Assembly (NCBI GenBank): GCA_038106525.1 | Contig: JAYOEC010000001.1 | Coordinates: 24,876-88,875, forward strand | DNA: 64,000 bases | Direction of reading: 5' to 3' | Origin: Minisyncoccota bacterium | GTDB taxonomy: Bacteria; Patescibacteriota; Minisyncoccia; Phycocordibacterales; Phycocordibacteraceae | Part shown: positions 5,063 to 53,585 of the stretch, one piece after another | Layout of the letters: each line of letters begins with the position of its first letter | Numbering within the stretch: position 1 is the first letter of the stretch | Notes under the pieces: generated by a model | Database searches by the model: none | Told to the model about the DNA's origin: nothing | What the model saw: only the letters and a program-made list of their open reading frames with translations | Translations under genes and position numbers: made by a program

Positions 5063-5099
5063 AGCGACAGCTTACAGGTTCTCGGCAGTCGATTCCAGT

Positions 5100-6308
5100 T
5101 CATTCCGCCGCACCTGAGGACGACAGTACCTCGCGCAAGTTTGCATACTTGTTCGCAGGATCCCAAAAAATCCACGAAGTCAATCCTGCCATTTCTGCCC
5201 CCCTGATCTGCGCTTGGATATCTTCTGGCCGATAATCTTTTCCGTAGTCAAAGTCCTGAAGCCACGGTCGCAGTATCCGCGCCGGATAGACGGACTTCGT
5301 ATAGCGTTGCGGCGAAGTAGACGCAACCGGAATCCCCGCAAGGGTTTGCACTAAAGTCGATGTCGCAAGCGCACGATCTACCGCCGCACTCATCGAAATG
5401 CGAATAATCTCAAGCGGATGCTGGTTCGGATTTCCGAGATCTCTGAAATTTTTTGGATAGTGCGACGGATAGACCATGGGCATGATGTAATCAAAGTACG
5501 GCATTGCTCGTTCAAGCTGCTGCCCGATATTAAGGTCATCGGTGTTTGTAGTCGTCATGCCGAATAGGTCAGCGGACATTACTGCCCCTGTCGGCTTGAC
5601 CGCCGCATGAAGGTACGCGAAAAATTGTTCAACCGCGTCAGGCTTGTTTGGGTTCTGATATCGAGCATCCGCCATCGGGCCATCGGATGGGTAGCGGATG
5701 TAATCGTAATTAAGTTCATCAAAGCCGATCTCTGTATGCGCGACACGCGAGAGTTCGGTTACATAGTCCCAGTATGGACGATACGACACATCAATAAACG
5801 AAAGTCCTTTAAAATCCTTCCACGGACCGCCTTTGGATGCGCTCTGAACTGCGGACTCCGGATGTTTTGAAGTGTAGTATGGGTCCTGAAACACAGTAAT
5901 CCGCCCAATCACATACACCCCCTTCTCATGCAATGCTGCAACAAATGAACGCATATCTACGGCGCCGCACGCATCCGAAACCGAATCAGCAAGAGTTGGA
6001 TTGTCGGTAGGGAAAGCAATCTTCCCCGTGTAGTCCTTTATGTCAATAACCACCGCATTCAAGGATGTCGACTCGATGAGGCGTACCAGGTCGTCCCGGA
6101 AACTCGGCGTACCAACGACGCACTGCGACATGTAGATTCCTCGCAACGGATCAGGAGTTTGTATGTATGCGTGCTGAGGAGCGGCTGGTTCAGTGAGGCG
6201 AGGTTCAAAAGCCTCTGCGGCACTATCCCACTTTCCCGGCACCAGATATCCAAGCGCACAGATGCCCAAAAAAAGCGCGAGGAGGAGCGCGCCGTATAGA
6301 TTACGCAT
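5100..6308 (-). CDS. Putative glycoside hydrolase (TIM-barrel, GHL10/DUF4015-like), secreted or membrane-anchored
   Basis: Start moved to MRNLYGALLLALFLGICALGYLVPG (signal/TM). Conserved block GRITVFQDPYYTSKHPESA...GFDELNYDYIRYPSDG typical of the uncharacterised hypothetical glycosyl hydrolase family. Confidence 0.6.
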   Translation of the reverse strand: MRNLYGALLLALFLGICALGYLVPGKWDSAAEAFEPRLTEPAAPQHAYIQTPDPLRGIYMSQCVVGTPSFRDDLVRLIESTSLNAVVIDIKDYTGKIAFPTDNPTLADSVSDACGAVDMRSFVAALHEKGVYVIGRITVFQDPYYTSKHPESAVQSASKGGPWKDFKGLSFIDVSYRPYWDYVTELSRVAHTEIGFDELNYDYIRYPSDGPMADARYQNPNKPDAVEQFFAYLHAAVKPTGAVMSADLFGMTTTNTDDLNIGQQLERAMPYFDYIMPMVYPSHYPKNFRDLGNPNQHPLEIIRISMSAAVDRALATSTLVQTLAGIPVASTSPQRYTKSVYPARILRPWLQDFDYGKDYRPEDIQAQIRGAEMAGLTSWIFWDPANKYANLREVLSSSGAAE

Positions 6309-6549
6309 CTGAACCATGCGGCACTTGGGGCTGTGGAGCATTTTCAGCATAGGCATCGGTGACGCGGCCGCCACCGAGCGCACGAAGCATCCACAGTCGC
6401 TCAACACGCATCAGCAATCCGAGAACGATGAGCGCAGCGCCAGCGCCGACCGCAATCCATGTTTTTGCCACGAGCGGCAGTCCGGTAAACGGCAAAAATG
6501 CAACGATGACACCGACACATACCACGAGCATCGCTTTTGACATGCACAC
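6301..6549 (-). CDS. Small two-TM membrane protein (hypothetical)
   Basis: 82 aa with two hydrophobic helices (MLVVCVGVIVAFLPFTGLPLV; WIAVGAGAALIVLGLLM). Same strand and tightly packed between rsmI and the GH gene. No homology assignable. Confidence 0.35.
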   Translation of the reverse strand: MCMSKAMLVVCVGVIVAFLPFTGLPLVAKTWIAVGAGAALIVLGLLMRVERLWMLRALGGGRVTDAYAENAPQPQVPHGSDA

Positions 6550-6552
6550 ATT

Positions 6553-7251
6553 CTAGCAAGCGCTCAGAACCACGACAAACTCGCCCCGAACGGGGATATC
6601 GTGTCCAATTCGTTCAGAAAGCTCTCTCACGGAACCAACCGCAACCTGCTCGTATAGCTTCGTCAGCTCCCTTGCAATAACTGCGTGCCGATCGGGAGCC
6701 TTGTCTACAAGTTCCAAAAAAAGTTTCTGAATCCGGTGCGGAGATTCGTAGCACACCAGTGCATAGCCACTCGCGAGTGCCTGATCAAGCTTCTTTTGCC
6801 TCCCCTTCTTATGCGGCAAAAACCCGACAAAGAGAAATTCTGAAAATGGTAGACCTGAAACCGAAAGCGCAGCGGTCAGTGCAGACGGTCCCGGGATGGG
6901 AACAATTGCGCCCTCGCCGCACCGCTCGCGCACCAGCTGCACCAACAGTCCACCAGGATCAGAAATACCCGGCGTCCCCGCGTCAGTAACATATGCAACT
7001 GACTTCCCTGACGCAACCAGCATTGCAACTCGCTCAAATGCCGCGCGCGGCGACCGCGCGCGAAGTGACAGTAGCGGCTTCTTAATCGCATACCGCGCGA
7101 GGAGTTTTGCGGTTACTCGAGTATCCTCTGCCACTACAGAGTCGACTTCCTTCAAAACTTCAAGCGCGCGGTTAGTAATATCCCCGAGGTTGCCAATCGG
7201 GGTAGCGAGGACGAACAACACATTGCCCTTCATACCAGTACTTAACCACAC
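6553..7251 (-). CDS. rsmI: 16S rRNA (cytidine1402-2'-O)-methyltransferase RsmI
   Basis: NVLFVLATPIGNLGDITNRALEVLKEVDSVVAEDTRVTAKLL... tetrapyrrole-methylase-fold RsmI signature; 232 aa. Confidence 0.85.
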   Translation of the reverse strand: MWLSTGMKGNVLFVLATPIGNLGDITNRALEVLKEVDSVVAEDTRVTAKLLARYAIKKPLLSLRARSPRAAFERVAMLVASGKSVAYVTDAGTPGISDPGGLLVQLVRERCGEGAIVPIPGPSALTAALSVSGLPFSEFLFVGFLPHKKGRQKKLDQALASGYALVCYESPHRIQKLFLELVDKAPDRHAVIARELTKLYEQVAVGSVRELSERIGHDIPVRGEFVVVLSAC

Positions 7252-7285
7252 CCTGAAGGAAGTACAAATCAGGTACTATGGACTG

Positions 7286-8698
7286 ATGCAAAGAGTCCAC
7301 TGCATCGGAATTGCAGGCATGGGTATGAGCGCTATTGCTGTACTGCTCAAAGAGGCCGGATACCATGTTACCGGATCGGACGAGGGTCTGTACCCGCCTG
7401 CGAGCGAGTACCTGCGCGAATCCGGGATTACTGTATTTGAAGGATACACGCCGCAGCATATCCCCGATGATACTGACTGGTTCATCATCGGCAGAAATGC
7501 GAAACTTGATCCAAGTACCAATGCCGAGGTGCGCGCCGCACTCGAGAGCGGGAAGCCGGTGCGGACCTTCCCCGAAGTGCTCGGTGAGCTTGGAAAAAAA
7601 TCACGCGTGCTCGTGGTCGCAGGGAGCTACGGAAAATCAACCAGTACCACACTCATCGCATGGTGCCTAGCCAGCGCAGGAAAAGATCCTTCGTATTTCA
7701 TAGGAGCTTTCCCGTTCGACCTCCCAAGAACCGCACGGCTCGGATCTGGAAATTTTTTCGTCATGGAGGGCGACGAGTACCCAACCTCCCATCAGGACCC
7801 GCGGTCAAAATTTTTGCACCTCGGCGCGCACGATGTACTGCTCACTGGAGCAGTACACGACCATGTAAATGTCTTTCCGACCGCGGACGACTACGAACGC
7901 GCATTTGTACCACTCATTGCAGGTCTGCCTGAGCAGGGGGTTATCGTCGCTGCGCGCGGAGAGGAAACGGAGCGGATACTTGCGCATGCCGGAAGGTCAG
8001 CAGTTATGTACGGGATTGGCGCATCTTCCGCTGGCTATGCTGCCACAGATATCCGCTTTGCTGAGCGAAGCTCCTTTGTTCTCAGAAAAGATGGCGCTGC
8101 TCTCGGAACACTTGAGACGGTCCTCCTCGGATCGCATAATATTGAAAACATCGTCGGAGCGGCGGCGATGCTGCTTGAGACTGGCGCACTGAGTTTTGAC
8201 GAAATAAGCACCGCAGTCGCCACATGCACCGGCGTCCGCCGCCGCCTTGATCTTTTGACTCCTGATTCGTCCGTACGCACCTATGAGGGGTTCGGTTCAT
8301 CGTATGAAAAAGCACGCGCCGCGATCAAAGCAATGAGGCTGCACTTCCCTGAGCGACGATTGGTAATTATATTTGAACCGCACACCTTCAGTTGGAGGAA
8401 TCGTAACTCCATACACTGGTACGATACGGTCTTTGCAGAAGCGAGCCGCGTGCTGGTATACGAACCCGCGAGACAAGGAAGCGAGACGCACGCGCAGCTG
8501 AATCAGGCAGAGATTGTTAATCGACTTCATCTTGCCGGAGTTCGTGCAGAGGCGTTGGATGAAGCTGCAGGAAATGCGCATATCCTTCAAAGCCTCGAAC
8601 CAGGAGATGTCGCGCTTATCTTAAGCTCCGGTAACTTAGGAGGGATTCTTGACACACTCCCAGCTGCCATCACTGCAGCATTTCCAAAATCCGCATGA
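7286..8698 (+). CDS. mpl: UDP-N-acetylmuramate:L-alanyl-gamma-D-glutamyl-meso-diaminopimelate ligase (Mpl-type Mur ligase)
   Basis: True start MQRVHCIGIAGMGMSAIAVLLKEAGYHVTGSD at 7286; the track's 5' extension overlaps rsmI on the opposite strand. Mpl-specific blocks: YPPASEYLRESGI, FFVMEGDEYPTSHQDPRSKF (vs E. coli Mpl FFVIEADEYDCAFFDKRSKF), GSHNIENIVGAAAM, VRRRLDLL, IFEPHTFSW, ILSSGNLGGI. Confidence 0.8.
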   Translation: MQRVHCIGIAGMGMSAIAVLLKEAGYHVTGSDEGLYPPASEYLRESGITVFEGYTPQHIPDDTDWFIIGRNAKLDPSTNAEVRAALESGKPVRTFPEVLGELGKKSRVLVVAGSYGKSTSTTLIAWCLASAGKDPSYFIGAFPFDLPRTARLGSGNFFVMEGDEYPTSHQDPRSKFLHLGAHDVLLTGAVHDHVNVFPTADDYERAFVPLIAGLPEQGVIVAARGEETERILAHAGRSAVMYGIGASSAGYAATDIRFAERSSFVLRKDGAALGTLETVLLGSHNIENIVGAAAMLLETGALSFDEISTAVATCTGVRRRLDLLTPDSSVRTYEGFGSSYEKARAAIKAMRLHFPERRLVIIFEPHTFSWRNRNSIHWYDTVFAEASRVLVYEPARQGSETHAQLNQAEIVNRLHLAGVRAEALDEAAGNAHILQSLEPGDVALILSSGNLGGILDTLPAAITAAFPKSA

Positions 8699-9366
8699 AA
8701 GTAATCCGCGAGGAATTCGGAGAGGACTATGGTAACTACCGCTTTGGATACTGCGTGTGGTGCCACCTGGAGCAGGATGATGAGCTTCGAGATATCTATG
8801 CAGGCGGATTTCTCCCATACTCAAAAAACCCAGAAGAGAAGAACACATTTTATATGGCACGGAGTGCTCGCGTCACGCTTAGCCAATTTGAGCCGTCGAG
8901 CGAAAATAGGAGGATTGCAAAAAGGTTCGATGGACAGGCCAGGCGCGAACTGCTTACTCCGGCAGAAGCAAAGACGGACCCGGAGTGCATCCCGATGGTG
9001 CTTGAGTACTTTTCAAAAAAACACGGCGCTATTGTCATGCCGGAAAATCGGCTTATCGGAATACTTGACACACCGCTCCCACTCAGAGTCGTACGGTATG
9101 TGGGCGACGCAGTGCTTGGGTATACATTTGAAATCGTAGCGGAGGGGGTGATGCACTTTTGGTATTCAGCGTACGATATGCGGTACGCGCAAAAATCTCT
9201 AGGCGCATGGCTTATGCTTGACTCAATTCGAAATGCAAAATCAGAGGGCAGAGCGCACGCGTATCTTGGCACCGTCTACGGCGAAAAGGGAAAATACAAA
9301 ATGAACTTTCAGCCGCTCGAATACTGGAACGGCACTGAATGGATTGGTGGGCGCGAGAGGACTTGA
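8695..9366 (+). CDS. ATE/Bpt-family aminoacyl-tRNA--protein transferase (arginyl/leucyl-tRNA protein transferase-like)
   Basis: N-terminal Cys motif FGYCVWC (ATE_N-like CGYC). C-terminal block HFWYSAYDMRYAQKSLGAWLMLDSIRNAKSEGRAHAYLGTVYGEKGKYKMNFQPLEYWNGTEW aligns with the Bpt/ATE_C pattern YSFYDP..SLG..L..I..AK..G...YLGY...C.KM.YK.NF.P.E...G.W. Start ATG overlaps the mpl stop (ATGA). Confidence 0.6.
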   Translation: MKVIREEFGEDYGNYRFGYCVWCHLEQDDELRDIYAGGFLPYSKNPEEKNTFYMARSARVTLSQFEPSSENRRIAKRFDGQARRELLTPAEAKTDPECIPMVLEYFSKKHGAIVMPENRLIGILDTPLPLRVVRYVGDAVLGYTFEIVAEGVMHFWYSAYDMRYAQKSLGAWLMLDSIRNAKSEGRAHAYLGTVYGEKGKYKMNFQPLEYWNGTEWIGGRERT

Positions 9367-9430
9367 ACCTCCACCCCCTTGCGGGGACTACGACCTGAAC
9401 GTAGCGTGTCTGCCATTTCACCACGCGCCC
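9345..9430 (-). tRNA. tRNA-Leu(CAG), long variable arm, CCA encoded
   Basis: Reverse complement: GGGCGCGTGGTGAAATGGCAGACACGCTACGTTCAGGTCGTAGTCCCCGCAAGGGGGTGGAGGTTCAAGTCCTCTCGCGCCCACCA. 7-bp acceptor, anticodon loop TTCAGGT (CAG), T-loop GGTTCAAGTCC. Its 3' end overlaps the last ~20 nt of the convergent Bpt-like CDS. Confidence 0.8.
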
Positions 9431-9470
9431 ATGTGGCTTAGTGCCTAGGATACTATAACAAAAAACCGAG

Positions 9471-9543
9471 TGCGCACTCTAGGATTCGAACCTAGGACCG
9501 CTCGAGTATCAGTCGAGTGCTCTACCAACTGAGCTAAGTGCGC
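9471..9543 (-). tRNA. tRNA-Ile(GAT), CCA not encoded
   Basis: Reverse complement: GCGCACTTAGCTCAGTTGGTAGAGCACTCGACTGATACTCGAGCGGTCCTAGGTTCGAATCCTAGAGTGCGCA. Anticodon loop CTGATAC (GAT). Immediately downstream of the 16S 3' end, as in rrn spacers. Confidence 0.8.
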
Positions 9544-9756
9544 ATGCTCATCCTATATACCAAAAAAAGCATTGCCCGTCGAGCGCCAAAACGCGACGAG
9601 CATCCAGATCCAAAGAGCTTTTCTTTCTTCTGCCCCGATCCACCCCCGTTTCGTGTATCGGGGTACCGAGCGCCAGTTTAGAGTTGTGCGCCAATACTCT
9701 GTGTCGTTAGACAATCGACCGGTAAGTCATCCCAAATTGTGGGACGACCTTTCCGT

Positions 9757-11215
<1,459 letters not shown>

Positions 11216-11572
11216 ATCTCGTGCCGCCAATTGGAAGGCGCGAGATCGGTAGTCGGAGCAGAAGAAAAACAAGCTCTTTGGTTACTACTTATTCTGGTTT
11301 GTATGCTTTGGTCCAAATTGTCAACGAACACCGGAAACAAAAAAGCCGAAGCTTTGCTCCGGCACCCCTTGAAAGATTTCTTCTAATGAAATTAGATGAA
11401 TGTCTTCATAGGTGTAAGAGCACCATGCAGCCGGAACTGTATGGCTCTGCCATTCTACCCCCCCGGATACCCCTTTGTCAACACCAAGCTGCTGAAAGCT
11501 TGTATGTAAAGAGTGGCTTTATACAGAGCTTTTTCCACACTTTCGTCCACACCCGTGTGATAGCATGAAGGT

Positions 11573-43233: not shown

Positions 43234-44634
43234 CTATCGTAGCACCGATGCATCACGGACGCGAGCAATGGCGTCTGAAATCGAAAGTCGTTCCTGCTCG
43301 CCAGTATCGCGGTGACGGAGCGTTACCGTGTCTTTGAGTTCCGGTCTCTCACCCAAGGTATCAAAGTCGATAACAATACAGTATGGCGTGCCAATCTCGT
43401 CCTGGCGGCGATAGCGTTTACCGATATTGCCGTTATCGTCCCACACCACCTGCGGGACTTCCTTTTTAAGCGCCGCATACACCTCGCGCGCTTTTGCCAC
43501 GAGCTCTGGCTTGTTCTTAAGAAGTGGCGAGACCGCTGCTTTGACTGGCGCGAGATGCGGCGCGAGTTTTAAGACGACGCGCGTTTCGCCGTCCATCTCA
43601 TCTTCATGATACGCGTCAGCAAGAACTGCAAGAAATACACGGCCCACACCCATCGATGTCTCAAGGATCCACGGTACATACTTCTCCCCTGTTTCCGGGT
43701 CGGTGTAGCGCAAGTCAACGCCCGAGAACTTTTGGTGCTGCGTGAGATCGTAGTCAGTACGGTCGTGGATTCCCTCTATTTCATCAAATCCTCCCGGGAA
43801 CTCGTACTCGATGTCCCATGCATCTTTTGCATAAAAAACGAGGTTGTCGTGCTGCTTCCACCTAAGTTTTGCTTCGGCAATGCCTAGGGAAAGGTACCAG
43901 TCCCAGCGATCCTTCTTGATCTGCTCGTATGCCTCTCTATTCTCATTCGGCCTTATAAAGTACTGGGTGTCCGCCTGCTCAAACTCGCGAGTGCGGAACA
44001 GGAAGTTGCGCGGGCTGATCTCGTTACGAAATGCTTTACCTATCTGCGCGACACCAAACGGCACTTTCGGATTCATGGAGTCGACAATGTTTTTATAGTC
44101 GAGATAGATCCCCTGGCATGCCTCACCAGGTAGGTACACCAGGTCTGCTCCTTCAGATGTAAAGTCGCCCAGATTCGACTTCACCAACAGGTTAAACGGC
44201 TTCACGCGACTAAAATCCTTTTTGCCGCACATCGGACATTTAATTTTGTCTCGGTTCTGGTCGAAGAGGTCGTTGAGCTCGGCTTCCGACATCTTTTCGT
44301 CCGCCGTCACACCGACCCTCCCGAGCTCCTTATCGACACGAATGCGCGTGTTGCAGTTCTTGCACTCAGCCAGGGGGTCCGAAAATCCCCCGACATGGCC
44401 AGACGCTTCCCAAGTTTTTGGGTGGCGGAACATCCCGCTGTCCAGTCCGTAATAGTTCTCGCGGTCATATACATTCGCCTTCCACCACGAGCGCTTAATG
44501 TTATTCAGAAGCTCGACGCCTCGCGGACCAAAGTCGTAGACACCTGCAAGTCCGCCGTAAATCTCTGATCCCGGGTACACAAACCCGCGGCGTTTTGCGA
44601 GCGACACTATTTTTTCCATGAGGTCACCTGCCAT
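43234..44634 (-). CDS. glyQS: Glycyl-tRNA synthetase (class II, alpha2 type)
   Basis: MEKIVSLAKRRGFVYPGSEIYGGLAGVYDFGPRGVELLNNIKRSWW... class II motifs; anticodon-binding C-terminus. Confidence 0.9.
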   Translation of the reverse strand: MAGDLMEKIVSLAKRRGFVYPGSEIYGGLAGVYDFGPRGVELLNNIKRSWWKANVYDRENYYGLDSGMFRHPKTWEASGHVGGFSDPLAECKNCNTRIRVDKELGRVGVTADEKMSEAELNDLFDQNRDKIKCPMCGKKDFSRVKPFNLLVKSNLGDFTSEGADLVYLPGEACQGIYLDYKNIVDSMNPKVPFGVAQIGKAFRNEISPRNFLFRTREFEQADTQYFIRPNENREAYEQIKKDRWDWYLSLGIAEAKLRWKQHDNLVFYAKDAWDIEYEFPGGFDEIEGIHDRTDYDLTQHQKFSGVDLRYTDPETGEKYVPWILETSMGVGRVFLAVLADAYHEDEMDGETRVVLKLAPHLAPVKAAVSPLLKNKPELVAKAREVYAALKKEVPQVVWDDNGNIGKRYRRQDEIGTPYCIVIDFDTLGERPELKDTVTLRHRDTGEQERLSISDAIARVRDASVLR

Positions 44635-44641
44635 AACTTGC

Positions 44642-46477
44642 TTACGGTACCACAGTACCCTGCTGCGATGAAACTCCGGTGCCAGTAGTAAGCGAGCCCG
44701 AAGATCGCTCGACTGTGGCTCGAATAAAGCGATCAAATGCTGACACGCGCTGATCAACGACAAGAGAGGGCATACTGTTTACCTGCGAGAGCGAGGGTAC
44801 TGCACCGATAGCAAAAGCTGCTGTCCGCTGTTCGCCTGGCGCAAGATCGCCAATCTCCCATGATATTGATCTGCCGTTCTCATGGTATGAAACCGCCCCT
44901 GACACTGCAGACTTCCACTCAACATAGTTCGGCAAAAGCGCAGTAACCACAGTATCAGCAACCGCGTTTGATGAGTTCGTGACCGTCCAAGAAACAATGT
45001 AGAGTGTCTCTTGCTCAACCTTTGGGGGTTGCGGACCGGAGCTGCGGGCAAGTGTTGCCGAAAGCGCAAGGTCAGTCGATACGAGCGCGACTGCCTTTGC
45101 GCTCGAGCCTACTTCTTCCTGTACATTGCCCTCGGCAGTTCTCTTCCCGCGGACTGTAGCAGCGAGCGTGATCTGTGGACTGCGGAACGACCCCGCATTC
45201 TGCGGGAGTGCCGCAAACTCGAAAGTTGCAAATTGAGACTCGCCAGGAGAAACATCTTCGAGCCTGCGATCAGTCTCCGGTGAAAAGATAATAGTGGTAT
45301 CTGAAGAACGATAGAAACCCTGTTCGGACTTAACTGAACTTTTGTCGAGAACCGCGCCGTTCAATCGCAGCTGTATCTCGACATCCTGAATGCGAGTCGG
45401 AAGATTGTTAGTCCACCGAATCTCTCCTCGAACCGGAACTCCCCGCTGTATGTTTTTTTCTGGTGCAGAATCGCCATTGAGCGATAGCTGTACCGATACG
45501 AACGGCTTTGCAACGAGCAACGAGATATCGGTCGCCGCAAGCGGTGCCTGGATGGTATCGGTGCCTTGCTTTTGAGAACCCGTAGTAAAGTGGACTACCC
45601 GATCCGAACCATCCTCGCCAACAAACGAACCGCGGATCACAATCTCCCGCTCTCCCGAAGGGAGTACGGTACCAAGATCCCACACATTGGAACCGGCACG
45701 AGGAGCTGGCGAAGAAGAGATAAAAGTAAACCCTGGGGGATAGGTGGCAACAAGCAGCATCCCCAGAAGCGGTTCAGTGGCATTTGAAGCGACCCGAACG
45801 CGGATCTCTGCGGGCTCTCCAGACACTACCTCGGACAGTGAGACAACACTAATTGATGCTGGAGACTGACTGATGGTTGTATGATACTCGCCCTCGCTAC
45901 GAAATACTGCATTCGAAGATGGCACCCGGTATTCTGCCGAAACAGCAACAGTAAGTTCTGTTCCTCGCTCGCCAAACAAGACTGCCTGAACGGTGCGCGT
46001 CACCGTTTCTCCGGGCTGGATAGTGCCGAGTGACTCGCGGATGCGCGGCAAGTCGAGCGACACATCAGCAGCAGACCGGGTTCCCGTCGGGTATTCAACC
46101 AAAAGGTCGGTGAGGTTCATCGGTGCAGGATTGTTATTGGTAATGAGAATTTGAAGCGACACCTCGTCTCCGGCACGAACCGCCGTTGGTCCCTGGATAT
46201 CGATCCTGACATTCTTCGTCGAAACTGTAGTGTCACCGGAGAAAATAATGAGACCGGCAACCGTCGCCGCAACGATAAAAAAGACGACTGACCCCGCAAA
46301 GAGATATTCGAGTACGGAAAATCTTCCAAGAAGCGACGGCGCGCGCGGTGGTGGCACCCGCCCCCACGCAGCAGGTGCCGGTGGGGGTGTGGTGCCGAGC
46401 GGTCGCCGTTGGAGCGGCTCTGAGCCAGGGCGCATTTCGACACGGGCGCTGAGCCGATCCAGCGATTCTTGATCCAT
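44642..46477 (-). CDS. Membrane-anchored hypothetical protein with extracytoplasmic beta-rich repeat domains
   Basis: Cytoplasmic Pro-rich N-terminus, single TM (FAGSVVFFIVAATVAGLIIF), then ~500 aa of repeated Ig-like/DUF11-like segments. No catalytic motif seen. Confidence 0.55.
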   Translation of the reverse strand: MDQESLDRLSARVEMRPGSEPLQRRPLGTTPPPAPAAWGRVPPPRAPSLLGRFSVLEYLFAGSVVFFIVAATVAGLIIFSGDTTVSTKNVRIDIQGPTAVRAGDEVSLQILITNNNPAPMNLTDLLVEYPTGTRSAADVSLDLPRIRESLGTIQPGETVTRTVQAVLFGERGTELTVAVSAEYRVPSSNAVFRSEGEYHTTISQSPASISVVSLSEVVSGEPAEIRVRVASNATEPLLGMLLVATYPPGFTFISSSPAPRAGSNVWDLGTVLPSGEREIVIRGSFVGEDGSDRVVHFTTGSQKQGTDTIQAPLAATDISLLVAKPFVSVQLSLNGDSAPEKNIQRGVPVRGEIRWTNNLPTRIQDVEIQLRLNGAVLDKSSVKSEQGFYRSSDTTIIFSPETDRRLEDVSPGESQFATFEFAALPQNAGSFRSPQITLAATVRGKRTAEGNVQEEVGSSAKAVALVSTDLALSATLARSSGPQPPKVEQETLYIVSWTVTNSSNAVADTVVTALLPNYVEWKSAVSGAVSYHENGRSISWEIGDLAPGEQRTAAFAIGAVPSLSQVNSMPSLVVDQRVSAFDRFIRATVERSSGSLTTGTGVSSQQGTVVP

Positions 46478-46495: not shown

Positions 46496-47080
46496 CTACA
46501 GGCCGGAGGCGCTCATACCGCGGTGTATGTGGCGGACTAACGCTCCGGTGCGCGCACCGGCGCGCATCAAAAGTGCGGCAGTAAGCGGAGAAGCGATGAA
46601 GTCGTGCTCGTCGTCGGATGGCGCAACATATCCAAGTGCCGCAAGGGTCCGTAGCACAACAAGGTATTCAAGCGTACGGATATCTTTGGCCGAAACATCG
46701 TGAAGGGCACCACAGTACTCCCAGAGCCGCCCAAAGAGCTCGTCATTCTTGCCTTCCCCACGGACAAATTGTCGTACAAACGAAATAACTCTGGCGAACG
46801 ATTTCTGAACTTCCTCCTGTTGCACTGCAAAATACTCGTTTACCGTCCGCACAGCGCCCGTAACGCGCCACTGATCTCTTCCTCGAACCAGCGAGTAGGT
46901 GCCGCGCGTCCCCGGTACCAGATGTGCCCGGAGCTTTGAGCGTTCCTCGCGAGCAGAAGTGGCGAGTGCAGTTACCAACCCCAACTCTTCGGTAAAGAGC
47001 ATAATCCTGAGCGATCCCTCGCCCGCCTGACGGCGGCTCAGTACAAGTCCGCGTGTATGCACCTCACGCTTTGTGAACAT
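46496..47080 (-). CDS. recO: DNA repair protein RecO (short form lacking Zn finger)
   Basis: MFTKREVHTRGLVLSRRQAGEGSLRIMLFTEELGLVTALATSAREERSKLRAHLVPGTRGTYSLV... N-terminal OB-fold pattern of RecO. Start chosen to avoid overlap with ileS. Confidence 0.6.
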   Translation of the reverse strand: MFTKREVHTRGLVLSRRQAGEGSLRIMLFTEELGLVTALATSAREERSKLRAHLVPGTRGTYSLVRGRDQWRVTGAVRTVNEYFAVQQEEVQKSFARVISFVRQFVRGEGKNDELFGRLWEYCGALHDVSAKDIRTLEYLVVLRTLAALGYVAPSDDEHDFIASPLTAALLMRAGARTGALVRHIHRGMSASGL

Positions 47081-50000
47081 TGAAATCTCCTTCACGAACT
47101 TCACTGATTGATGCTGCCCTCTCTAGACTCTCGAAGTGCTGCTGAGCAAATACCAACCGCTCGGCCGGAACGGACAGCACCGCACGGTCTTTTGGATTAA
47201 GCCCTGCAATTTTCCGCGCCTCCTGCACTTCACGAATAAGCTCGCGCACTTCTCCCTCCTCCCTAAGCGCATCGGTCAAGGTGGTATCAAGTTCAACCAT
47301 TTCGGGTATTCCCTCTTGCACCACCACCTCCTTTACATTCAATTCATCGCGGATCAGGTCGAGCAGGTCGTTTTTATTCGCAAGTGACGGCGCATTAATT
47401 TTGAGCCTAGAGAGCGGCTGACGAACCTTGATGCCCTCTTTCTGTCTTGCCTCGAGCGCCAAGGACACCAACTCGCGCACCTTTTGCATATCTAATACAA
47501 GTTCAGATGAGTTAAGGCGCAAAAGACTCTTCCAATCGAATATCTTGCGAGCAACAGTCGGCCAGGCTGCAAGGTGCACGGATACCGGATCCTGTTCATC
47601 TCGAACGCCGCGGTACACAGCCTCAGCAAGAAACGGAGCAAACGGTGCTAAGAGGCGTGCTGAAACATGCAATGTCTTTCGCAGCGTCTGTAGTGCAGCG
47701 CGGTCGCCGTCCCGAACCCGATCACGGATGCGGCGCACATACCATTGCGAAATATCTTCGAAAAGGGCTGCAAGCGCTCGTGTCGCTGCGGTGAGATTAT
47801 ATGCGTCGAGCGCCGAGGTCACCTCAACTATAACTTGTTCCGTCCGTCGCTGCATCCACTGATCGATACTCATCACACGCATATCAGGCCCGCCTTCGTT
47901 CTTAAAAATCTCATAAAACTTTGCGCTGTTATCAAACCAACCAAGAGCTCGAGCCGCCTCACGGACGGTCTTTTCGTCAAAATTCTTTGGATCCCCGGCA
48001 TCATTGACACTAAACATCCAAAATCTCAGTGCATCCGCTCCCCACTGTTCAATAGCATCCCAAGGGTTTACCACATTGCCGCGACTCTTCGACATTTTTT
48101 TTCCTTCCGCATCAAGCAGATGACCCAGTGATACTACATGGTTATATGGAGCCCCCTTTCCCATGAGAACACCGACCGCAAGAAGTGTATAAAACCACCC
48201 GCGTGTCTGATCAATTGCTTCAGCAATGTAGTCCGCAGGATATGGTGACTCGGTGCCGAATGGCATTCCTCCAGAATCAAACCACACATCGACCACATCC
48301 GGAACGCGATGGAGTTCTTTGCCTGTCGGGGACTCGAGCACCACTGAATCGATAAATGGGCGGTGTAGGTCAAGCTCGTAATCAGCATTGTGCGGCAACC
48401 GAACAAACTGGAACTCGCGCACCTCGCCAGTGGTGTAGTATTCCTCGCGATCCTTCATGGCGACCGTCCCAGCAACATCAGCCCCTCTGGCAATTGCCTC
48501 GGCTAACCAAACGGCGTACTCGTGCGTCACGATCAAAATAGTCTCTCCATGATGTTTCTCCTCAAGTTCGTAGAGGAACGCGCCAATCCGGCGTCGCATG
48601 TCCATCAAATTTTCTCCGCCAGGGGGCGTCTTGTAAAACCGTTCTTGGTACGAAGAAAAGAAATGATGGTACGCCTCGACCGACTTTCCATCAAATTCTC
48701 CCGTATCTATTTCTTGAATTCGATCATCAAATCGTATTTCTGATTTCGGAAATCCGCATGCGTCGGCAACGATCTCTGCAGTCTCTCTGGTACGGATGAA
48801 TGGGGAGGCATAGATCGCATCAAATCTCTTCCATTTCAGAGTCTGTGCGGACTTTGCAACCTGTGCCCTGCCGGAGTCTGTCAGATGATTTTCGTCACCC
48901 GCATGAGAACTGACCACGGACCCAACATTGCTCATTGCCTGCCCATGCCGCATCAAAAAGTAAGTGTTGCCGCTCTTTTTACTATAGCGTTTCAGCTCAT
49001 CAACGGAACCGATGACCATGTGCTCACCCTCTCCTTCCCACACCGGGAGTGGTGTTGCCCAGTATCGTTCGCGAGAAATTGCCCAGTCCTTTATGCCTCG
49101 CAGCCACTCGCCCATGCGCCCATCACGCAAGTGTGCGGGAACCCAAGCAACCGTCGCATTCTCCCGCTGCAGAGTATCAGCCAATTCGGACATACGGATG
49201 TACCAAGAATCGCGCGCATAGTAGATGAGTGCAGTTTTACATCTCCAGCAAAATGGGTAGGAATGTGCATGCTTCCCTTTTGAGAACAAGTGTCCGCGGT
49301 GCGCGAGGTCCTTAATGATGTCGACCGCAACACCCTCATCCCGTACAAATCTGCCAGCCAAAAATCCGACCCCATCCATAAAACGCCCGGACGGCTCGAC
49401 CACATGTACACGGGGTAAATCGTTTTTTTGACCAAGCAAAAAATCATCCGCCCCATACATGACCGCGGTATGCACCACTCCCGTGCCATCTTCAGTAGTT
49501 ACAAAATCAGCCTCGTACACCTTAAAGGCACTCGCAAACCGCTCGCGCTCACTTTCAGGAGCCAAATCCCGTGCAAATGGGTACAGAGGTTCATATGTCT
49601 GACCAACGAGCTGCTCGCCGGACAAGGATTCAGCTCCTTCCGCAGAAAGGCCGAGGGACGATGCCCGATCTTTAGCAACAATCAGGGTTTCTCCATCATT
49701 GCGGACCTTTAGGTACTGAATGCCACCACCAACCGCGAGAGCAACATTCCCTGGTAATGTCCATGGAGTGGTGGTCCACGCGAGAATAAAGGTCGGCTGC
49801 TGCTCGCCGACCTGTTCCGGAGTGCGAAGGCGAAACTTTGCAACAACCGCAAGGTCGCTTACTTCCTCATACCCTTGTGCAACCTCATGTGATGAAAGAG
49901 CGGTGCCACATCGAGGACACCATGGAACCACCTTGTAATCCTTATACAACCGCCGATCTCGGTGCACCTTGGCAAGAATGCCCCAGAGCCGTTCCATGTA

Positions 50001-50468
50001 TGTTGGAGTGTAAGTGTAGTATGCATCCGCCTGATCAACCCAATACCCAATGCGTTCAGTAAAACGCCACCACTCGTCTATGTACCGTAAGACACTCTCC
50101 CGGCACTTCTGATTAAAGGCTGCGACACCGTACGCCTCAATCTCCGGCTTTCCTGAAAATCCTAGCTGCTTCTCAACCTCGAGCTCCACCGGAAGTCCGT
50201 GCGTATCCCACCCTGCACGGCGCTTCACACGATACCCCTGCATTGTCTTATACCGAGGAATTGCATCCTTAAACGCTCGCGCTTCGAGGTGGTGCAAGCC
50301 AGGTTTACCATTTGCTGTAGGCGGCCCCTCATAAAATACAAACTCGCCCTTCGGGGCTGGCTTCTCCAACGACCGTTCAAAAATCTTGTGTTCTTTCCAA
50401 AATGCAAGCACCTCCTCCTCGCGGAGTGCGGCATCCGACTTTTGACGCTGCTGCGCATCGTCGTGCAT
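47064..50468 (-). CDS. ileS: Isoleucyl-tRNA synthetase carrying an internal histidine-phosphatase (PGAM-like) domain insertion
   Basis: YEGPPTANGKPGLHHLEARAFKDAIPRYKTMQG (HIGH region), WCPRCGTALSSHEVAQGY, CP1 editing domain TTPWTLPGNVALAV, DVWFDSG, KMSKSRGNVV. Between WATPLPVW (aa ~471) and DVWFDSG (aa ~727) sits ~190 aa with LMRHGQAMSN and ILIVTHEYAVWL. Confidence 0.9.
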   Translation of the reverse strand: MHDDAQQRQKSDAALREEEVLAFWKEHKIFERSLEKPAPKGEFVFYEGPPTANGKPGLHHLEARAFKDAIPRYKTMQGYRVKRRAGWDTHGLPVELEVEKQLGFSGKPEIEAYGVAAFNQKCRESVLRYIDEWWRFTERIGYWVDQADAYYTYTPTYMERLWGILAKVHRDRRLYKDYKVVPWCPRCGTALSSHEVAQGYEEVSDLAVVAKFRLRTPEQVGEQQPTFILAWTTTPWTLPGNVALAVGGGIQYLKVRNDGETLIVAKDRASSLGLSAEGAESLSGEQLVGQTYEPLYPFARDLAPESERERFASAFKVYEADFVTTEDGTGVVHTAVMYGADDFLLGQKNDLPRVHVVEPSGRFMDGVGFLAGRFVRDEGVAVDIIKDLAHRGHLFSKGKHAHSYPFCWRCKTALIYYARDSWYIRMSELADTLQRENATVAWVPAHLRDGRMGEWLRGIKDWAISRERYWATPLPVWEGEGEHMVIGSVDELKRYSKKSGNTYFLMRHGQAMSNVGSVVSSHAGDENHLTDSGRAQVAKSAQTLKWKRFDAIYASPFIRTRETAEIVADACGFPKSEIRFDDRIQEIDTGEFDGKSVEAYHHFFSSYQERFYKTPPGGENLMDMRRRIGAFLYELEEKHHGETILIVTHEYAVWLAEAIARGADVAGTVAMKDREEYYTTGEVREFQFVRLPHNADYELDLHRPFIDSVVLESPTGKELHRVPDVVDVWFDSGGMPFGTESPYPADYIAEAIDQTRGWFYTLLAVGVLMGKGAPYNHVVSLGHLLDAEGKKMSKSRGNVVNPWDAIEQWGADALRFWMFSVNDAGDPKNFDEKTVREAARALGWFDNSAKFYEIFKNEGGPDMRVMSIDQWMQRRTEQVIVEVTSALDAYNLTAATRALAALFEDISQWYVRRIRDRVRDGDRAALQTLRKTLHVSARLLAPFAPFLAEAVYRGVRDEQDPVSVHLAAWPTVARKIFDWKSLLRLNSSELVLDMQKVRELVSLALEARQKEGIKVRQPLSRLKINAPSLANKNDLLDLIRDELNVKEVVVQEGIPEMVELDTTLTDALREEGEVRELIREVQEARKIAGLNPKDRAVLSVPAERLVFAQQHFESLERAASISEVREGDFNVHKA

Positions 50469-50494: not shown

Positions 50495-51862
50495 TCAAGG
50501 CGCAGCGGTCTTTGAATGGGACACGAGTAGGTACGCTCCAGCACCAGCAGTACCCAAAAGCCCAGCCATAAAAACGAAAACCCAATACGGGAGCGGCCTC
50601 CTTGGTGAGGCAGTTGTTGTTGCCTCAACAATGTCGCGAGAACCATCCGATGACCCGGCTGACGCACCAAGCACCAACCCACTCGCGGCCGCCATCGATT
50701 GTTGCTCTTGTTCTGCTCTCGGGATGCTTTTAGCTGAGAGCATGAGCTGCGCCGTATAGGTCACTGCGGGCATGCCATTTGGGTACTGAAGCAGTACTGT
50801 GCTCGGAACACTTGGGCGCACCCCTGTTACCGCACCGGCAAATGCAACAAGGGTCTGAGGGCGCACTATGGTGCGTGGAGGAAAGACGAATCGTGATCCG
50901 TCCGCACTCAAAATCCATCCACCAAGGTCAACCTCGTGAGAGGAGTGGTTCTTAATTTCTACCAGTTCTGGAGACACCGTACCGAACGAAAGATCCGCGG
51001 GCACCGCTGCAACCAGCACTCTGTCGGCAGCACTATATGCACCACTTGCAGCATCAGCAACCACCGTGTAACTCCCTGGATAGAGAAAAGTGTGCGCTAC
51101 CGATTGTCCTTCGGCGCTTGTTCCATCACCAAAACTCCACACCACGCGAGCACTCTCAATCCGCTCGCCGGCGAGGCCATAGACTACCGAGGAGAATATG
51201 AGCGGAGCCCCAACAATCGCGGTCCGATCATCGCCAGCTGTGATGCGGATCTTCGGGTCGACAGGAAACGAGCTGGTGCTTGGACTGCTCGACGCCGAAA
51301 CAGACGATGGTGTTGATGTCTCAGGAACCTCCGTTTCCTCTGAAGCAGCACCGGGCCCGCCACCGGGTGTTGGTTGAAGTGCTACCCAGCTTGAGCCGTT
51401 TTTCTGAAGTGATGTGCCGTCTCCTGCTCCGCCCATCCCTGGTGTATAGGTCACCGAGTCGATATCTGCTCCGGCGTTGTCACGCACAGCAATGCTTTCG
51501 CCATTCGTATTATTAAGCCCGCTGGTAAACGCAACATCGAAAAGAGTCCCTGAAAATCCAGGATAATCAGCAAGAAATGTAGTCGGGTCGTCTGCAATGA
51601 CTACATATGTTCCGGATGGAATAGTCTCGGCACCCGCAACAAGATTGAGTGAGTGATTAACGCCTCCCTCAAAAAGCTTCCAGTCGGAAAGAACTATCGG
51701 CTCGCCCGAATTCATAACCTCTATCCACTCGTGTTTCGTATCGGTACCGCTTGGATCATACATAATCTCCGAAATAAAAACTGCCGCAGAGGCGGCAGTG
51801 GGAGCTACAAAAACGGTCAGGAAGACGAGGAGCGGGATCGAGGCCCGATACATGCCTACCAC
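50495..51862 (-). CDS. Surface protein with two lamin-tail domains, signal peptide and C-terminal TM anchor
   Basis: Signal MVGMYRASIPLLVFLTVFVAPTAASAAVFISEIMYDPSGTDTKHEWIEVMNSGEPIVLSDWKLFEGG (LTD1). Second LTD VSPELVEIKNHSSHEVDLGGWILSADGSRFVFPPRTIVRPQTLVAFAG. C-terminal PYWVFVFMAGLLGTAGAGAYLLV. Confidence 0.7.
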   Translation of the reverse strand: MVGMYRASIPLLVFLTVFVAPTAASAAVFISEIMYDPSGTDTKHEWIEVMNSGEPIVLSDWKLFEGGVNHSLNLVAGAETIPSGTYVVIADDPTTFLADYPGFSGTLFDVAFTSGLNNTNGESIAVRDNAGADIDSVTYTPGMGGAGDGTSLQKNGSSWVALQPTPGGGPGAASEETEVPETSTPSSVSASSSPSTSSFPVDPKIRITAGDDRTAIVGAPLIFSSVVYGLAGERIESARVVWSFGDGTSAEGQSVAHTFLYPGSYTVVADAASGAYSAADRVLVAAVPADLSFGTVSPELVEIKNHSSHEVDLGGWILSADGSRFVFPPRTIVRPQTLVAFAGAVTGVRPSVPSTVLLQYPNGMPAVTYTAQLMLSAKSIPRAEQEQQSMAAASGLVLGASAGSSDGSRDIVEATTTASPRRPLPYWVFVFMAGLLGTAGAGAYLLVSHSKTAAP

Positions 51863-51890: not shown

Positions 51891-53585
51891 TTACATCCGA
51901 TCCGGAGCTTGGATCCCGAGTAGCCAGAGACCGTTTTTCATCGTGTGCAGAAATGCTTCGGTAATTGCAATTTTGTACGGCGAGTAAGGATCGGATGGAT
52001 CAACAATCTTGGTCCCCGCATACCAACTATTAAATGCGCCTGCGAGCTCGGTTAAAAATGTGGTGACATAGTGTGGCTCGTATTCAACCATTGCGCGCTC
52101 CACCACCTCTGGGAATCGATACAACAACCGCTCAAGCACCGTGATGCCGTCCGGTAGCATGGCGGACGATGGCTGGATCCGCTCCGCGCGCGCGCGTTCG
52201 AGGACGGAGCGCGCGCGCGTATGCGCGTACTGGAGGTACGGACCCGAGTCTCCCTCAAGAGAAAGCGACTGCGTCGGATCAAAAATGATATTCTTCCCGG
52301 TTCCCTGCTTCAAAATCGAAAATTTGATTGCGGCAACGGCGACCGCATCAGCGATCAATTCCTTTTCGTCACCAAGGTCGCGCTCCTGCATCCTCTCAAG
52401 CGCCTTTACACGCATCGTCTCAATCAGCGATTCGCCGGTGATAACATTCCCCTTTCGGGACGACATCTTGCCTGTGGTGAGGAGGAGCATTCCGAACGGC
52501 ACATGCAGATACGCAGATCCGATATCCGGTCTCAGTTCCGAAAGTGCGGCACGAACAACCGTAAAGTATCCATCCTGCTCAGAAGCTACTGTCGTAACAT
52601 TTAAGTCGAACGGAAAAGTTGCATACTTTGCCTCAGCAAGCCCAAGCTCCTTTGCTTCGTAAGTGGGCGTTCCGTTTTTGGTGATAAATACCCTGGTGTG
52701 CAAGCCGCACTTCTCTCCGCGGTACACGATCGCACCATCACTCTCTTCAAAGATGCCGGCAGCAAGTCCGTCTGCAACCATCTGGGCACCACGCCCAGCA
52801 ACCATGCTCTCAAAAAATAATCCGTCAAATGTCGTGCCGAGCAGCCGATACAATGCGTCAAACTTCTGCAGCGACGCCGTGCGCCCAATATCGTACACCG
52901 TCTGGTACTGCGAGCTCCCTTTGTAGAGTTCGGCGTTGATGAAATCAATTTCTGATCGCGCACTTTCATCGGATTCATACGCCTCGTGCCCAAATGCATA
53001 CGCTTCGCCAAGAGCAATAACATCATGCGGATCCTTTCCTGTCCGCTCGATGCCCCACAAACACTTCGCAACATGCGGACCGATATCTCCTTGATAATTT
53101 GCCCTAAAGAGCTCTGGACCGGACCACTCGATCAACCGAGAAATCGACTCGCCGACTGTCGTCGACATAAGGTGACCGATATGAAAGGGCTTGAACGGAT
53201 TGGGCTGCGAGTACTCAACCATCACCTTCTTGCCTTTCAAAAGGGCATTTTTGCCCCAATCCTTTCCTATCGCGGCAATGTCCGCAATCGAATTTCCGAA
53301 ATAGGCCCGCGATAAATAAAAGTTGATGAACCCTGGCCCTGCGACCTCGAGCTTTGCAACACCTGCCTGTGCGAGAAGATTATCCTTCAAAAGCACTGCG
53401 ACAACTTCTTCCGCAAGCGCCTTTGGGCTTTTCTTCGCTGCCTTTGCTGCGGCGAGAGCAACTGAAGTCGCATAATCGCCGTTCGACACATCTGCTGGAT
53501 GTTCGAGCACTGGTGCTACTCCCTCAATTCCAAGAGAGACAAGACTCCGCAACAGCGCATCATGAATGGCGCGTCGTACTTCCAT
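51891..53585 (-). CDS. argS: Arginyl-tRNA synthetase
   Basis: N-terminal Arg_tRNA_synt_N, VMVEYSQPNPFKPFHIGHLMSTTVGESI (HIGH), C-terminal DALR anticodon-binding region. Confidence 0.9.
   Translation of the reverse strand: MEVRRAIHDALLRSLVSLGIEGVAPVLEHPADVSNGDYATSVALAAAKAAKKSPKALAEEVVAVLLKDNLLAQAGVAKLEVAGPGFINFYLSRAYFGNSIADIAAIGKDWGKNALLKGKKVMVEYSQPNPFKPFHIGHLMSTTVGESISRLIEWSGPELFRANYQGDIGPHVAKCLWGIERTGKDPHDVIALGEAYAFGHEAYESDESARSEIDFINAELYKGSSQYQTVYDIGRTASLQKFDALYRLLGTTFDGLFFESMVAGRGAQMVADGLAAGIFEESDGAIVYRGEKCGLHTRVFITKNGTPTYEAKELGLAEAKYATFPFDLNVTTVASEQDGYFTVVRAALSELRPDIGSAYLHVPFGMLLLTTGKMSSRKGNVITGESLIETMRVKALERMQERDLGDEKELIADAVAVAAIKFSILKQGTGKNIIFDPTQSLSLEGDSGPYLQYAHTRARSVLERARAERIQPSSAMLPDGITVLERLLYRFPEVVERAMVEYEPHYVTTFLTELAGAFNSWYAGTKIVDPSDPYSPYKIAITEAFLHTMKNGLWLLGIQAPDRM

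Follow-up and report, generated by a model that had tools for sequence, protein, structure and literature searches.

A histidine phosphatase domain inserted in the type-2 isoleucyl-tRNA synthetase of Patescibacteria, with standalone relatives encoded beside ileS

The accepted precedent for a second catalytic site that serves the 3′ end of tRNA is the CP1 editing domain of the isoleucyl-, valyl- and leucyl-tRNA synthetases (IleRS, ValRS and LeuRS), a hydrolytic domain that is inserted in the connective polypeptide of the Rossmann fold and acts on species delivered from the synthetic site. This editing domain aside, extra catalytic domains inside the catalytic half of a synthetase are, to our knowledge, very rare in bacteria, and we know of no phosphatase that takes part in tRNA charging. 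Here we describe a stretch of 64,000 nucleotides from an uncultured Minisyncoccota bacterium (GenBank assembly GCA_038106525.1, contig JAYOEC010000001.1, positions 24,876 to 88,875 of the forward strand; the whole stretch is called the window in the following), in which the ileS gene encodes a type-2 IleRS with a histidine phosphatase domain in a loop of its catalytic half. Like CP1, this domain belongs to a hydrolytic family and interrupts the connective polypeptide, but whereas CP1 is universal, has an unrelated fold and is an esterase for mis-acylated tRNA, the phosphatase insert is restricted to a clade and lies at another site.

The closest described phosphatases are PhoE (Geobacillus stearothermophilus YhfR, 1EBB/1H2E) and the phosphoserine phosphatase PspA (4IJ5), which share with the insert the fold, 27% identity, a similar size (~190-210 aa) and the R-H-G...N...R...E...H set of residues. 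They are free-standing metabolic enzymes, whereas the insert, together with its standalone siblings, makes up an uncurated subfamily of its own, which is tied to ileS and has as its hallmarks N-x-Y-F-x-x-R-H-G at the start and GE-x-R-x-L in the terminal strand. The synthetases most similar to the host, the IleRS2 structures 8C8W and 1ILE, resemble it over the full length, in fold, in the CP1 editing domain, in KMSKS and in the type-2 C-terminal domain, but they have no counterpart of the 194 extra residues that make up the phosphatase domain here, in the surface loop that belongs to the second zinc knuckle. Two curated NCBIfam families come close in architecture. The bifunctional RNase H / acid phosphatase of the Rv2228c type (NF005567), in which a branch-1 histidine phosphatase is fused to a nucleic-acid enzyme, is the NCBIfam phosphatase model on which the insert scores highest (82.7 bits, far under the cut-off of 326), but it is an end-to-end fusion rather than an insertion, and its partner enzyme is unrelated. 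The other, NF040702 (isoleucine--tRNA ligase, N-acetyltransferase domain-containing), is an IleRS with an additional enzyme domain, but this domain is a GNAT and not a histidine phosphatase, and our protein matches the model in the IleRS part only (290 bits versus a cut-off of 1999); a literature search found no paper on this family.

A full-text search with incomplete journal coverage, which included a 2026 domain-insertion survey, found no paper that describes any synthetase with a histidine phosphatase inside or next to it. The architecture is already visible in public sequence databases, for example as PIR85021.1 in GenBank and UniRef100_A0A2H0UF52 in UniRef. What appears to be new, going by the sequences compared here, are standalone relatives of the insert that lie between argS and an insert-less ileS, such that the phosphatase would be both a conserved accessory domain and an operon partner of IleRS.

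The gene, its parts and the signatures of the host enzyme are the following.

47064-50468, minus strand: ileS, an uninterrupted open reading frame (ORF) of 1134 aa encoding a type-2 (eukaryote/archaeal-like) IleRS with the inserted phosphatase domain
48981-50468, minus strand: N-terminal part of the IleRS, aa 1-496, aligning with 8c8w residues 10-478
48399-48980, minus strand: inserted histidine phosphatase, aa 497-690, 194 residues, His_Phos_1, PhoE/PspA-like
47064-48398, minus strand: C-terminal part of the IleRS, aa 691-1134, aligning with 8c8w residues 478-859, with Anticodon_1 and DUF5915 (Pfam)
50289-50300, minus strand: GLHH, the HIGH signature of class I in its non-canonical GXHH form (re-translation)
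49746-49781, minus strand: AWTTTPWTLPGN of the CP1 editing domain (re-translation; invariant in homologues)
48270-48290, minus strand: DVWFDSG (re-translation)
48084-48098, minus strand: the KMSKS loop of IleRS (re-translation; invariant in the homologue alignment)

The ileS product scores 776.8 bits against the NCBIfam model TIGR00392, for which the curated equivalog cut-off is 621.4, and carries the Pfam domains tRNA-synt_1, Anticodon_1 and DUF5915, the last of which is the type-2 C-terminal domain and replaces the bacterial zinc-binding C-terminus. Its closest solved structures are P. megaterium IleRS2 (8c8w, E 1.9e-210) and the T. thermophilus enzyme (1ile, E 1.3e-200), to which an AlphaFold2 (AF2) model of the full-length protein (pLDDT 87.3, pTM 0.78) compares with TMt values of 0.77 and 0.83, respectively. 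A first-pass annotation, which was made from the letters of the window without database searches, had described a 1134-aa product with all canonical IleRS blocks; upon re-translation, every motif that it quoted was found where it had been placed, and the TIGR00392 score supports the assignment. Residues 1-496 contain GLHH within the first half of the Rossmann fold, as well as the CP1 editing domain, the WAISRERYWATPLPVW motif and one half of a former zinc knuckle; the other half of this knuckle is found in aa 691-1134, together with DVWFDSG, KMSKS, the domain that binds the anticodon and the type-2 C-terminal domain. At the HIGH signature, P56, H59 and H60 are invariant across 55 homologues with the consensus KPGIHH, such that the GXHH form seems, from this alignment, to be common to the whole insert-bearing clade. 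The GXHH swap in IleRS2 has been linked to mupirocin hyper-resistance (PMC10485003), and the hyper-resistant IleRS2 subgroup has the same signature as the ileS product here. Apart from a lost zinc site, the host is by these comparisons an ordinary member of IleRS type 2.

Aligned to 8c8w, residues 13-496 of the query correspond to residues 10-478 of the chain, and residues 691-1060 to residues 478-859; moreover, the ileS product devoid of aa 497-685 aligns end to end with both 8c8w and 1ile with a single 4-residue gap. Hence, the extra segment comprises aa 497-690, or nt 48399-48980, which bears out to the nucleotide the ~190 additional residues that had been noticed from the sequence. The insert has a GC content of 0.507 versus 0.525 for the remaining gene, the reading frame is continuous, and the junctions read ...RYS/KKSGN and ...FVR/LPHNAD. 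The domain is located between a helix (...ELKRYS) and the LPHN...DLHRP segment, i.e., at the tip of the second zinc knuckle, and its insertion point corresponds to residue 478 of PmIleRS2, in the connective-peptide part directly before the core resumes at DVWFDSG. Since the HUP catalytic core of PmIleRS2 consists of residues 40-168 and 513-632 (PMC10485003), the insertion point lies in the connective-peptide region and outside this core. The names in use for the connective peptides of eukaryote-type IleRS are CP core, CP1 (the editing domain), CP2 and CP3 (PMC11685878). The initial description of a phosphatase embedded in the catalytic core of a class I synthetase thus has to be narrowed: the domain is inside the catalytic half, but it occupies a loop, that of the second zinc knuckle, and not the HUP core itself.

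The two halves of the knuckle that flank the insert have lost their ligands.

49008-49043, minus strand: first half of the zinc knuckle, ligands lost, VWEGEGEHMVIG (VWEGEGEHMV), from the alignment
48312-48341, minus strand: second half of the zinc knuckle, ligands lost, VLESPTGKEL, from the alignment

Counted from the alignment, the second zinc site of T. thermophilus IleRS consists of VCQAC with Cys461 and Cys464 and of LACACG with Cys502 and Cys504, and all four of these second-knuckle cysteines are replaced in the query. Such a knuckle is a common, but non-defining feature of IleRS2. The idea that the insert has replaced the knuckle was rejected, since 46 of 81 insert-bearing enzymes keep all four cysteines (CxxC...CxC/CxxC); all four are lost in 29 of the 81. 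This argues that the domain entered an intact knuckle and that the zinc site decayed later in some lineages, a decay that, judging from the sequences, probably took place repeatedly.

That the insert is a histidine phosphatase, as had been suspected from two short motifs, is borne out by a match of PF00300 (His_Phos_1) to aa 504-664 with an E-value of 1.9e-32 (112.9 bits; gathering cut-off 21.7). The insert aligns with PhoE (1ebb/1h2e) at E 2e-13 and also with PspA (4ij5), and its RHG, second Arg, Glu and second His fall on the catalytic positions of these two enzymes, among them both of the motifs that had first drawn attention. The isolated insert is modelled by AF2 with a pLDDT of 94.9 and a pTM of 0.91, and a Foldseek search with this model returned the small branch-1 phosphatases PspA, PhoE, CobC, Rv2419c and TIGAR (TM 0.76-0.82, probability 1.00). 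In the full-length model, residues 500-690 have a pLDDT of 92-97, and their secondary-structure elements match those of the isolated domain. This is the pattern that an autonomous lobe would show. The predicted catalytic residues are the following.

48927-48950, minus strand: R507, the nucleophile H508 and G509 ... N514, with RHG at 48942-48950; aligned to PhoE R10/H11
48792-48794, minus strand: R559, the second phosphate-binding Arg (SPFIRTRETA); invariant in the homologue alignment
48711-48713, minus strand: E586, the predicted general acid (RIQEID); aligned to the E of PhoE RLREIHLG
48522-48524, minus strand: H649, the second catalytic His (ILIVTHE); aligned to the His of PhoE LIVTH

Conservation of these positions was determined in the query together with the best 80 species loci of a GTDB scan (see below). 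R507 is present in 81/81, H508 in 80/81, N514 in 79/81, and R559, E586 and H649 in 80/80 each. In 120 homologues, the length of the insert varies between 191 and 201 aa, and its mean identity to the query is 41%, as compared to 62% for the IleRS part. A pocket that is near-invariant at 41% identity is the pattern expected, at the sequence level, of an enzyme under purifying selection, unlike that of structural filler. The insert looks CATALYTICALLY competent, and we hold it to be very probable that it is a real, catalytically competent domain. The opposite reading, in which a catalytically dead module has taken the place of the zinc knuckle and stabilizes or extends the connective-peptide region, would be in line with the absence of all four zinc ligands from the query and with the faster evolution of the insert relative to the remaining protein. 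However, it does not account for catalytic residues that are essentially invariant over hundreds of species at ~41% identity, nor for the full Cys4 knuckle of the 46 insert-bearing enzymes mentioned above or the existence of standalone relatives, and we therefore regard it as very improbable.

Within its superfamily, the guest is a normal member of histidine phosphatase branch 1 that belongs to no curated subfamily. The identity of a dPGM (TIGR01258, NF038349 and others) was rejected, with dPGM_arch at 79.9 versus a cut-off of 225 and the other dPGM models lower, as were those of CobC (TIGR03162; 74.4 versus 162.9), PspA (NF045917; 64.4 versus 350), phosphoserine phosphatase 1 (NF009994; 46.4 versus 277) and SixA (TIGR00249; 38.3 versus 74.5). 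Standalone relatives likewise remain below the cut-off of every named small-phosphatase model in NCBIfam. Since no NCBIfam cut-off is reached, the earlier designation of the insert as PGAM-like is valid at the level of the superfamily only. A search of PADLOC-DB gave no match for the insert or for two standalone relatives, and a role as a component of a defence system was for this reason set aside.

The architecture is widespread. An NCBI contig of 115 kb carries the identical protein. The 119 non-redundant full-length homologues that rank next (1093-1189 aa, 54-69% identity), which come from Kaiserbacteria, Paceibacterota, Minisyncoccia and other patescibacterial metagenome-assembled genomes, all have PF00300 together with the IleRS domains. 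The survey of homologues that the first-pass annotation had proposed thus found the insertion in 120/120 of the best full-length homologues, and altogether in more than 120 independent assemblies on contigs of up to 960 kb. In the GTDB scan, for which a single peptide pattern from the insert and one genome per species were used, 583 of the 600 stretches considered encode a relative, which gives a count of at least 583 species genomes. The best 80 loci belong to Parcubacteria-type lineages (Kaiser-, Yonath-, Lloyd-, Taylor-, Nomura-, Vogel-, Zambryski- and Wolfebacteria, Paceibacterota), and the match is within an ORF of more than 1000 aa in 69 of them; the other 11 ORFs are shorter, and the end of the locus cuts most of these. 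An exhaustive HMMER scan of 1.84 billion representatives at 50% identity yielded 414 proteins at E<=1e-30.

This distribution bears on the possibility that the insertion is selfish or mobile in the manner of an intein and without benefit to the host, or else an artefact of assembly or annotation. In its favour, the domain occurs at several sites, in tandem copies and with a patchy presence, and some apparent standalone hits are frameshifted ileS genes. The artefact reading, with an assembly chimera or a frameshift at its root, is refuted by the identical protein on the 115-kb contig, the 119 further homologues, the continuous frame, the uniform GC content and the number of independent assemblies. 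As to an intein or mobile element, the fold is that of a histidine phosphatase and not Hint or endonuclease, there is no nucleophilic Cys, Ser or Thr at the junctions, the enzyme residues are under strong purifying selection, and the base composition equals that of the host gene. We thus deem this explanation extremely improbable, and among the roles initially listed for the domain, selfish insertion is the one that fared worst. In two IleRS fragments from Logan contigs of 2.6 and 1.7 kb (P0045 and P0052), the insert is precisely absent and a linker of 6-9 residues is found instead. Their flanks are 75% identical to those of insert-bearing enzymes, and they also lack the zinc cysteines, which is apparently a case of secondary loss of the insert.

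A second line of evidence comes from standalone proteins of 177-230 aa (~190) that are 37-45% identical to the insert, which is the same closeness as that of the inserts among themselves. The standalone form starts at a Met just ahead of the RHG strand and stops at the GE-x-R-x-L strand with which the insert ends, too. The catalytic Arg, His, Arg and His are kept, and the acid position, which is not among the listed conserved columns, is usually Glu. Two such genes (P0083 and P0116) have argS on one side and, on the other, an insert-less ileS of 972-986 aa with an intact Cys4 knuckle, and the order argS-(phosphatase)-ileS-recO-DUF11/CLIPPER protein is shared by these loci and the window. The standalone genes often overlap ileS or lie a few nucleotides away from it, as in these two loci.

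Locus L085: phosphatase at 8001-8543 and ileS at 8549-11509, with a gap of 5 nt
Locus L087: phosphatase at 4451-5017 and ileS at 4986-7904, with an overlap of 32 nt

By this arrangement, the standalone gene would often be translationally coupled with ileS. A metagenome scan that was seeded with an alignment of 10 standalone sequences gave 258 confirmed relatives, and the best 80 of these were analysed (loci L095-L174); 52 are standalone and 28 embedded. Where at least 300 nt of DNA were available downstream of a standalone gene, an ileS start followed on the same strand within 100 nt in 38/46 loci and within 1 kb in 42/46. The end of argS lies no more than 150 nt upstream in 35/45 standalone loci, and argS is directly upstream in 19/23 embedded loci. 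The complete insert-less ileS products have a median length of ~960 aa, the insert-bearing ones of 1165 aa. Adjacency to ileS persists across IleRS lineages that are just 35-46% identical to one another. In a neighbour-joining tree of IleRS (insert masked; crude and midpoint-rooted), 19 of the 30 enzymes associated with a solo phosphatase fall in one run of leaves, interrupted by a single insert-bearing leaf, and the other 11 are scattered among insert-bearing enzymes, which hints at several switches between the solo and the embedded state.

Proteins that are encoded separately but side by side in one set of genomes and fused in another set bear a classic Rosetta-stone and operon signature, which from these gene arrangements would point to a functional partnership; we accordingly think it likely that the phosphatase is functionally coupled to IleRS. 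The statement of the first-pass annotation that this is not a matter of two fused neighbouring genes holds in so far as the insert is in frame and no read-through is involved. However, the standalone relatives that come closest to the insert are encoded, in other lineages, directly upstream of ileS, and the neighbouring gene is thus, as far as the sequences tell, the likely source or sibling of the insert. Some candidates for standalone genes did not stand up. The representative P0243 is a frameshifted ileS in one ENA assembly; at this locus (L081, 4496-7869), an insert-bearing ileS is split into four ORFs, probably by an assembly frameshift, and genes for Cas1 and an IS605 OrfB-like protein are found between argS and ileS. 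P0381, P0403 and other short solo representatives turned out to be fragments of IleRS. P0247 and P0251 are true standalone histidine phosphatases, more distant and in unrelated contexts.

The phosphatase is not confined to one copy or to the knuckle. Among the 150 best representatives of the HMMER scan, five have a tandem double insert at the same site (P0398 of 1468 aa, P0406, P0417, P0433 and P0444), two (P0435 and P0439) combine the knuckle site (site A) with a site after KMSKS and ahead of the anticodon domain, two (P0390 of 1419 aa and P0437) have a copy just past DVWFDSG and one at the post-KMSKS site, and P0375 has copies at site A and at the post-DVWFDSG site. P0442 (1538 aa, with Val_tRNA-synt_C, named ValRS by JGI) is a valyl-tRNA synthetase with two copies, and P0360 is a class I fragment with four. 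RHG is retained in every copy of the multi-copy proteins, and the cluster of P0390 has five more members on contigs of up to 1.06 Mb, such that its architecture is no accident of assembly. Two-domain and standalone forms of the phosphatase are also found among the representatives. No fusion at the N- or C-terminus and no copy in the editing, anticodon-binding or C-terminal domains occurs in these 150 proteins. For two adjacent genes, end-to-end fusion would be the easiest outcome, and its absence from this set argues, at the level of sequence, that proximity to the aminoacylation site matters.

These arrangements also speak to whether the domain is a housekeeping small-molecule phosphatase, with a sugar phosphate, phosphoserine or a nucleotide as its substrate, that merely hitch-hikes without a mechanistic link to aminoacylation and stays in or next to ileS only because, in a minimal genome, an essential gene with constitutive expression makes sure that the phosphatase is expressed as well. 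The closest solved relatives, PhoE, PspA, CobC, Rv2419c and TIGAR, are indeed broad-specificity or metabolite phosphatases, the domain has no RNA-binding charge, its copy number and site vary, it can be lost, and the 64-kb window contains no other His_Phos gene. Yet a link by expression would be served most easily by end-to-end fusion, which is seen in 0/150 of the best representatives, and it would not explain why the domain recurs in catalytic-domain loops of both IleRS and ValRS, or why the ileS adjacency is maintained across such divergent IleRS lineages. Both the idea of a housekeeping passenger and that of its retention for the sake of expression are, in our view, rather unlikely.

The alternative insertion sites are immediate neighbours of the KMSKS loop, which brings up a protein phosphatase that guards IleRS by stripping an inhibitory phosphate, for example from a Ser in or near this loop, and so counters kinases of the HipA/HipT type. 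Phosphorylation of such a serine by these kinases is known to inactivate GltX and TrpS, which are class I enzymes. The superfamily is generally known to include protein phosphatases, among them SixA, PGAM5 and Sts-1, and either insertion or translational coupling would give the phosphatase a one-to-one stoichiometry with its target. However, no kinase adjoins ileS in the window or at the standalone loci examined, PADLOC gives no match, and the SixA model remains at 38.3 as compared to its cut-off of 74.5. We consider this explanation decidedly unlikely.

What we favour, and regard as reasonably probable, is a bifunctional type-2 IleRS in which the PhoE/PspA-like domain acts in cis beside aminoacylation. 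From the chemistry of the family, the domain is expected to hydrolyse a phosphomonoester in two steps. H508 would attack the phosphomonoester and take over the phosphate, with R507, N514, R559 and H649 binding the phosphoryl group and E586 protonating the leaving group; water would then hydrolyse the phospho-histidine intermediate and free the phosphate. From its anatomy, the domain would most likely act in cis on a phosphorylated species that otherwise blocks the aminoacylation site, because the module occurs either as a neighbour of ileS or within catalytic-domain loops. Since the synthetic site accommodates two adenosine moieties, namely ATP and A76 of the tRNA, the target that we prefer is an adenosine ribose with a 2′/3′-(pyro)phosphate. 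Tentatively, this ribose could belong either to A76 at the end of tRNA-Ile or to an ATP/AMP-like (3′-phosphorylated adenine) nucleotide, a possibility rather than a probable assignment. Removal of the phosphate would restore a chargeable substrate.

Several observations weigh against the action of the domain in cis at the synthetic site, or against the proposed target. Most bacterial members of branch 1 act on small metabolites, and by analogy with these relatives, a small molecule, be it a nucleotide or an unrelated metabolite, would be favoured as the target over the tRNA end. The embedded domains are slightly acidic, with a median net charge of -3, and have no obvious RNA-binding surface. 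The insert reaches no curated NCBIfam family, so that its specificity is not readable from homology. With two to four copies and three different sites in use, the exact geometry is apparently uncritical, and the insert-less P0045 and P0052 imply that IleRS can do without the domain. Finally, the position next to ileS could instead reflect a link to argS.

The neighbourhood of ileS in the window comprises the following genes.

51891-53585, minus strand: argS, the upstream neighbour that is conserved in related genomes (Pfam; synteny)
50495-51862, minus strand: a gene between argS and ileS for a 455-aa protein with Lamin-tail and PKD domains and an apparent N-terminal signal or anchor
46496-47104, minus strand: recO, listed with a GTG start codon that is perhaps not the real start, overlapping the end of ileS by 41 nt (47064-47104)
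44642-46477: a DUF11/CLIPPER-like surface protein
43234-44763: a class II synthetase

The order ileS-recO-DUF11/CLIPPER-like protein-class II synthetase is kept in related contigs. At most of the related loci, argS is immediately followed by ileS or by the phosphatase gene, and the gene for the 455-aa protein looks like an insertion into this conserved argS-ileS junction.

If the bifunctional enzyme is viewed in a wider context, the class Ia synthetases of Patescibacteria might carry a built-in or operon-encoded de-blocking phosphatase, i.e., a repair or immunity module for the charging of Ile (and Val), a generalization that we put forward as doubtful. Such a phosphatase would remove an inhibitory phosphate from the substrate of translation or from the synthetase itself, and would constitute an accessory activity of synthetases alongside editing. 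Candidates for this phosphate would be a 3′-(pyro)phosphate on the CCA end of tRNA and a phosphoserine beside the KMSKS loop. The former would resemble the product of toxic enzymes homologous to RelA/SpoT, and the latter that of HipA-type kinases. The domain represents a second, apparently active hydrolase that is conserved in hundreds of species and alternates between a gene beside ileS and a domain inside IleRS. The identity of its substrate could reveal a new step of quality control or repair in translation, or else a new way in which the tiny, host-dependent bacteria of the Candidate Phyla Radiation protect or regulate protein synthesis.

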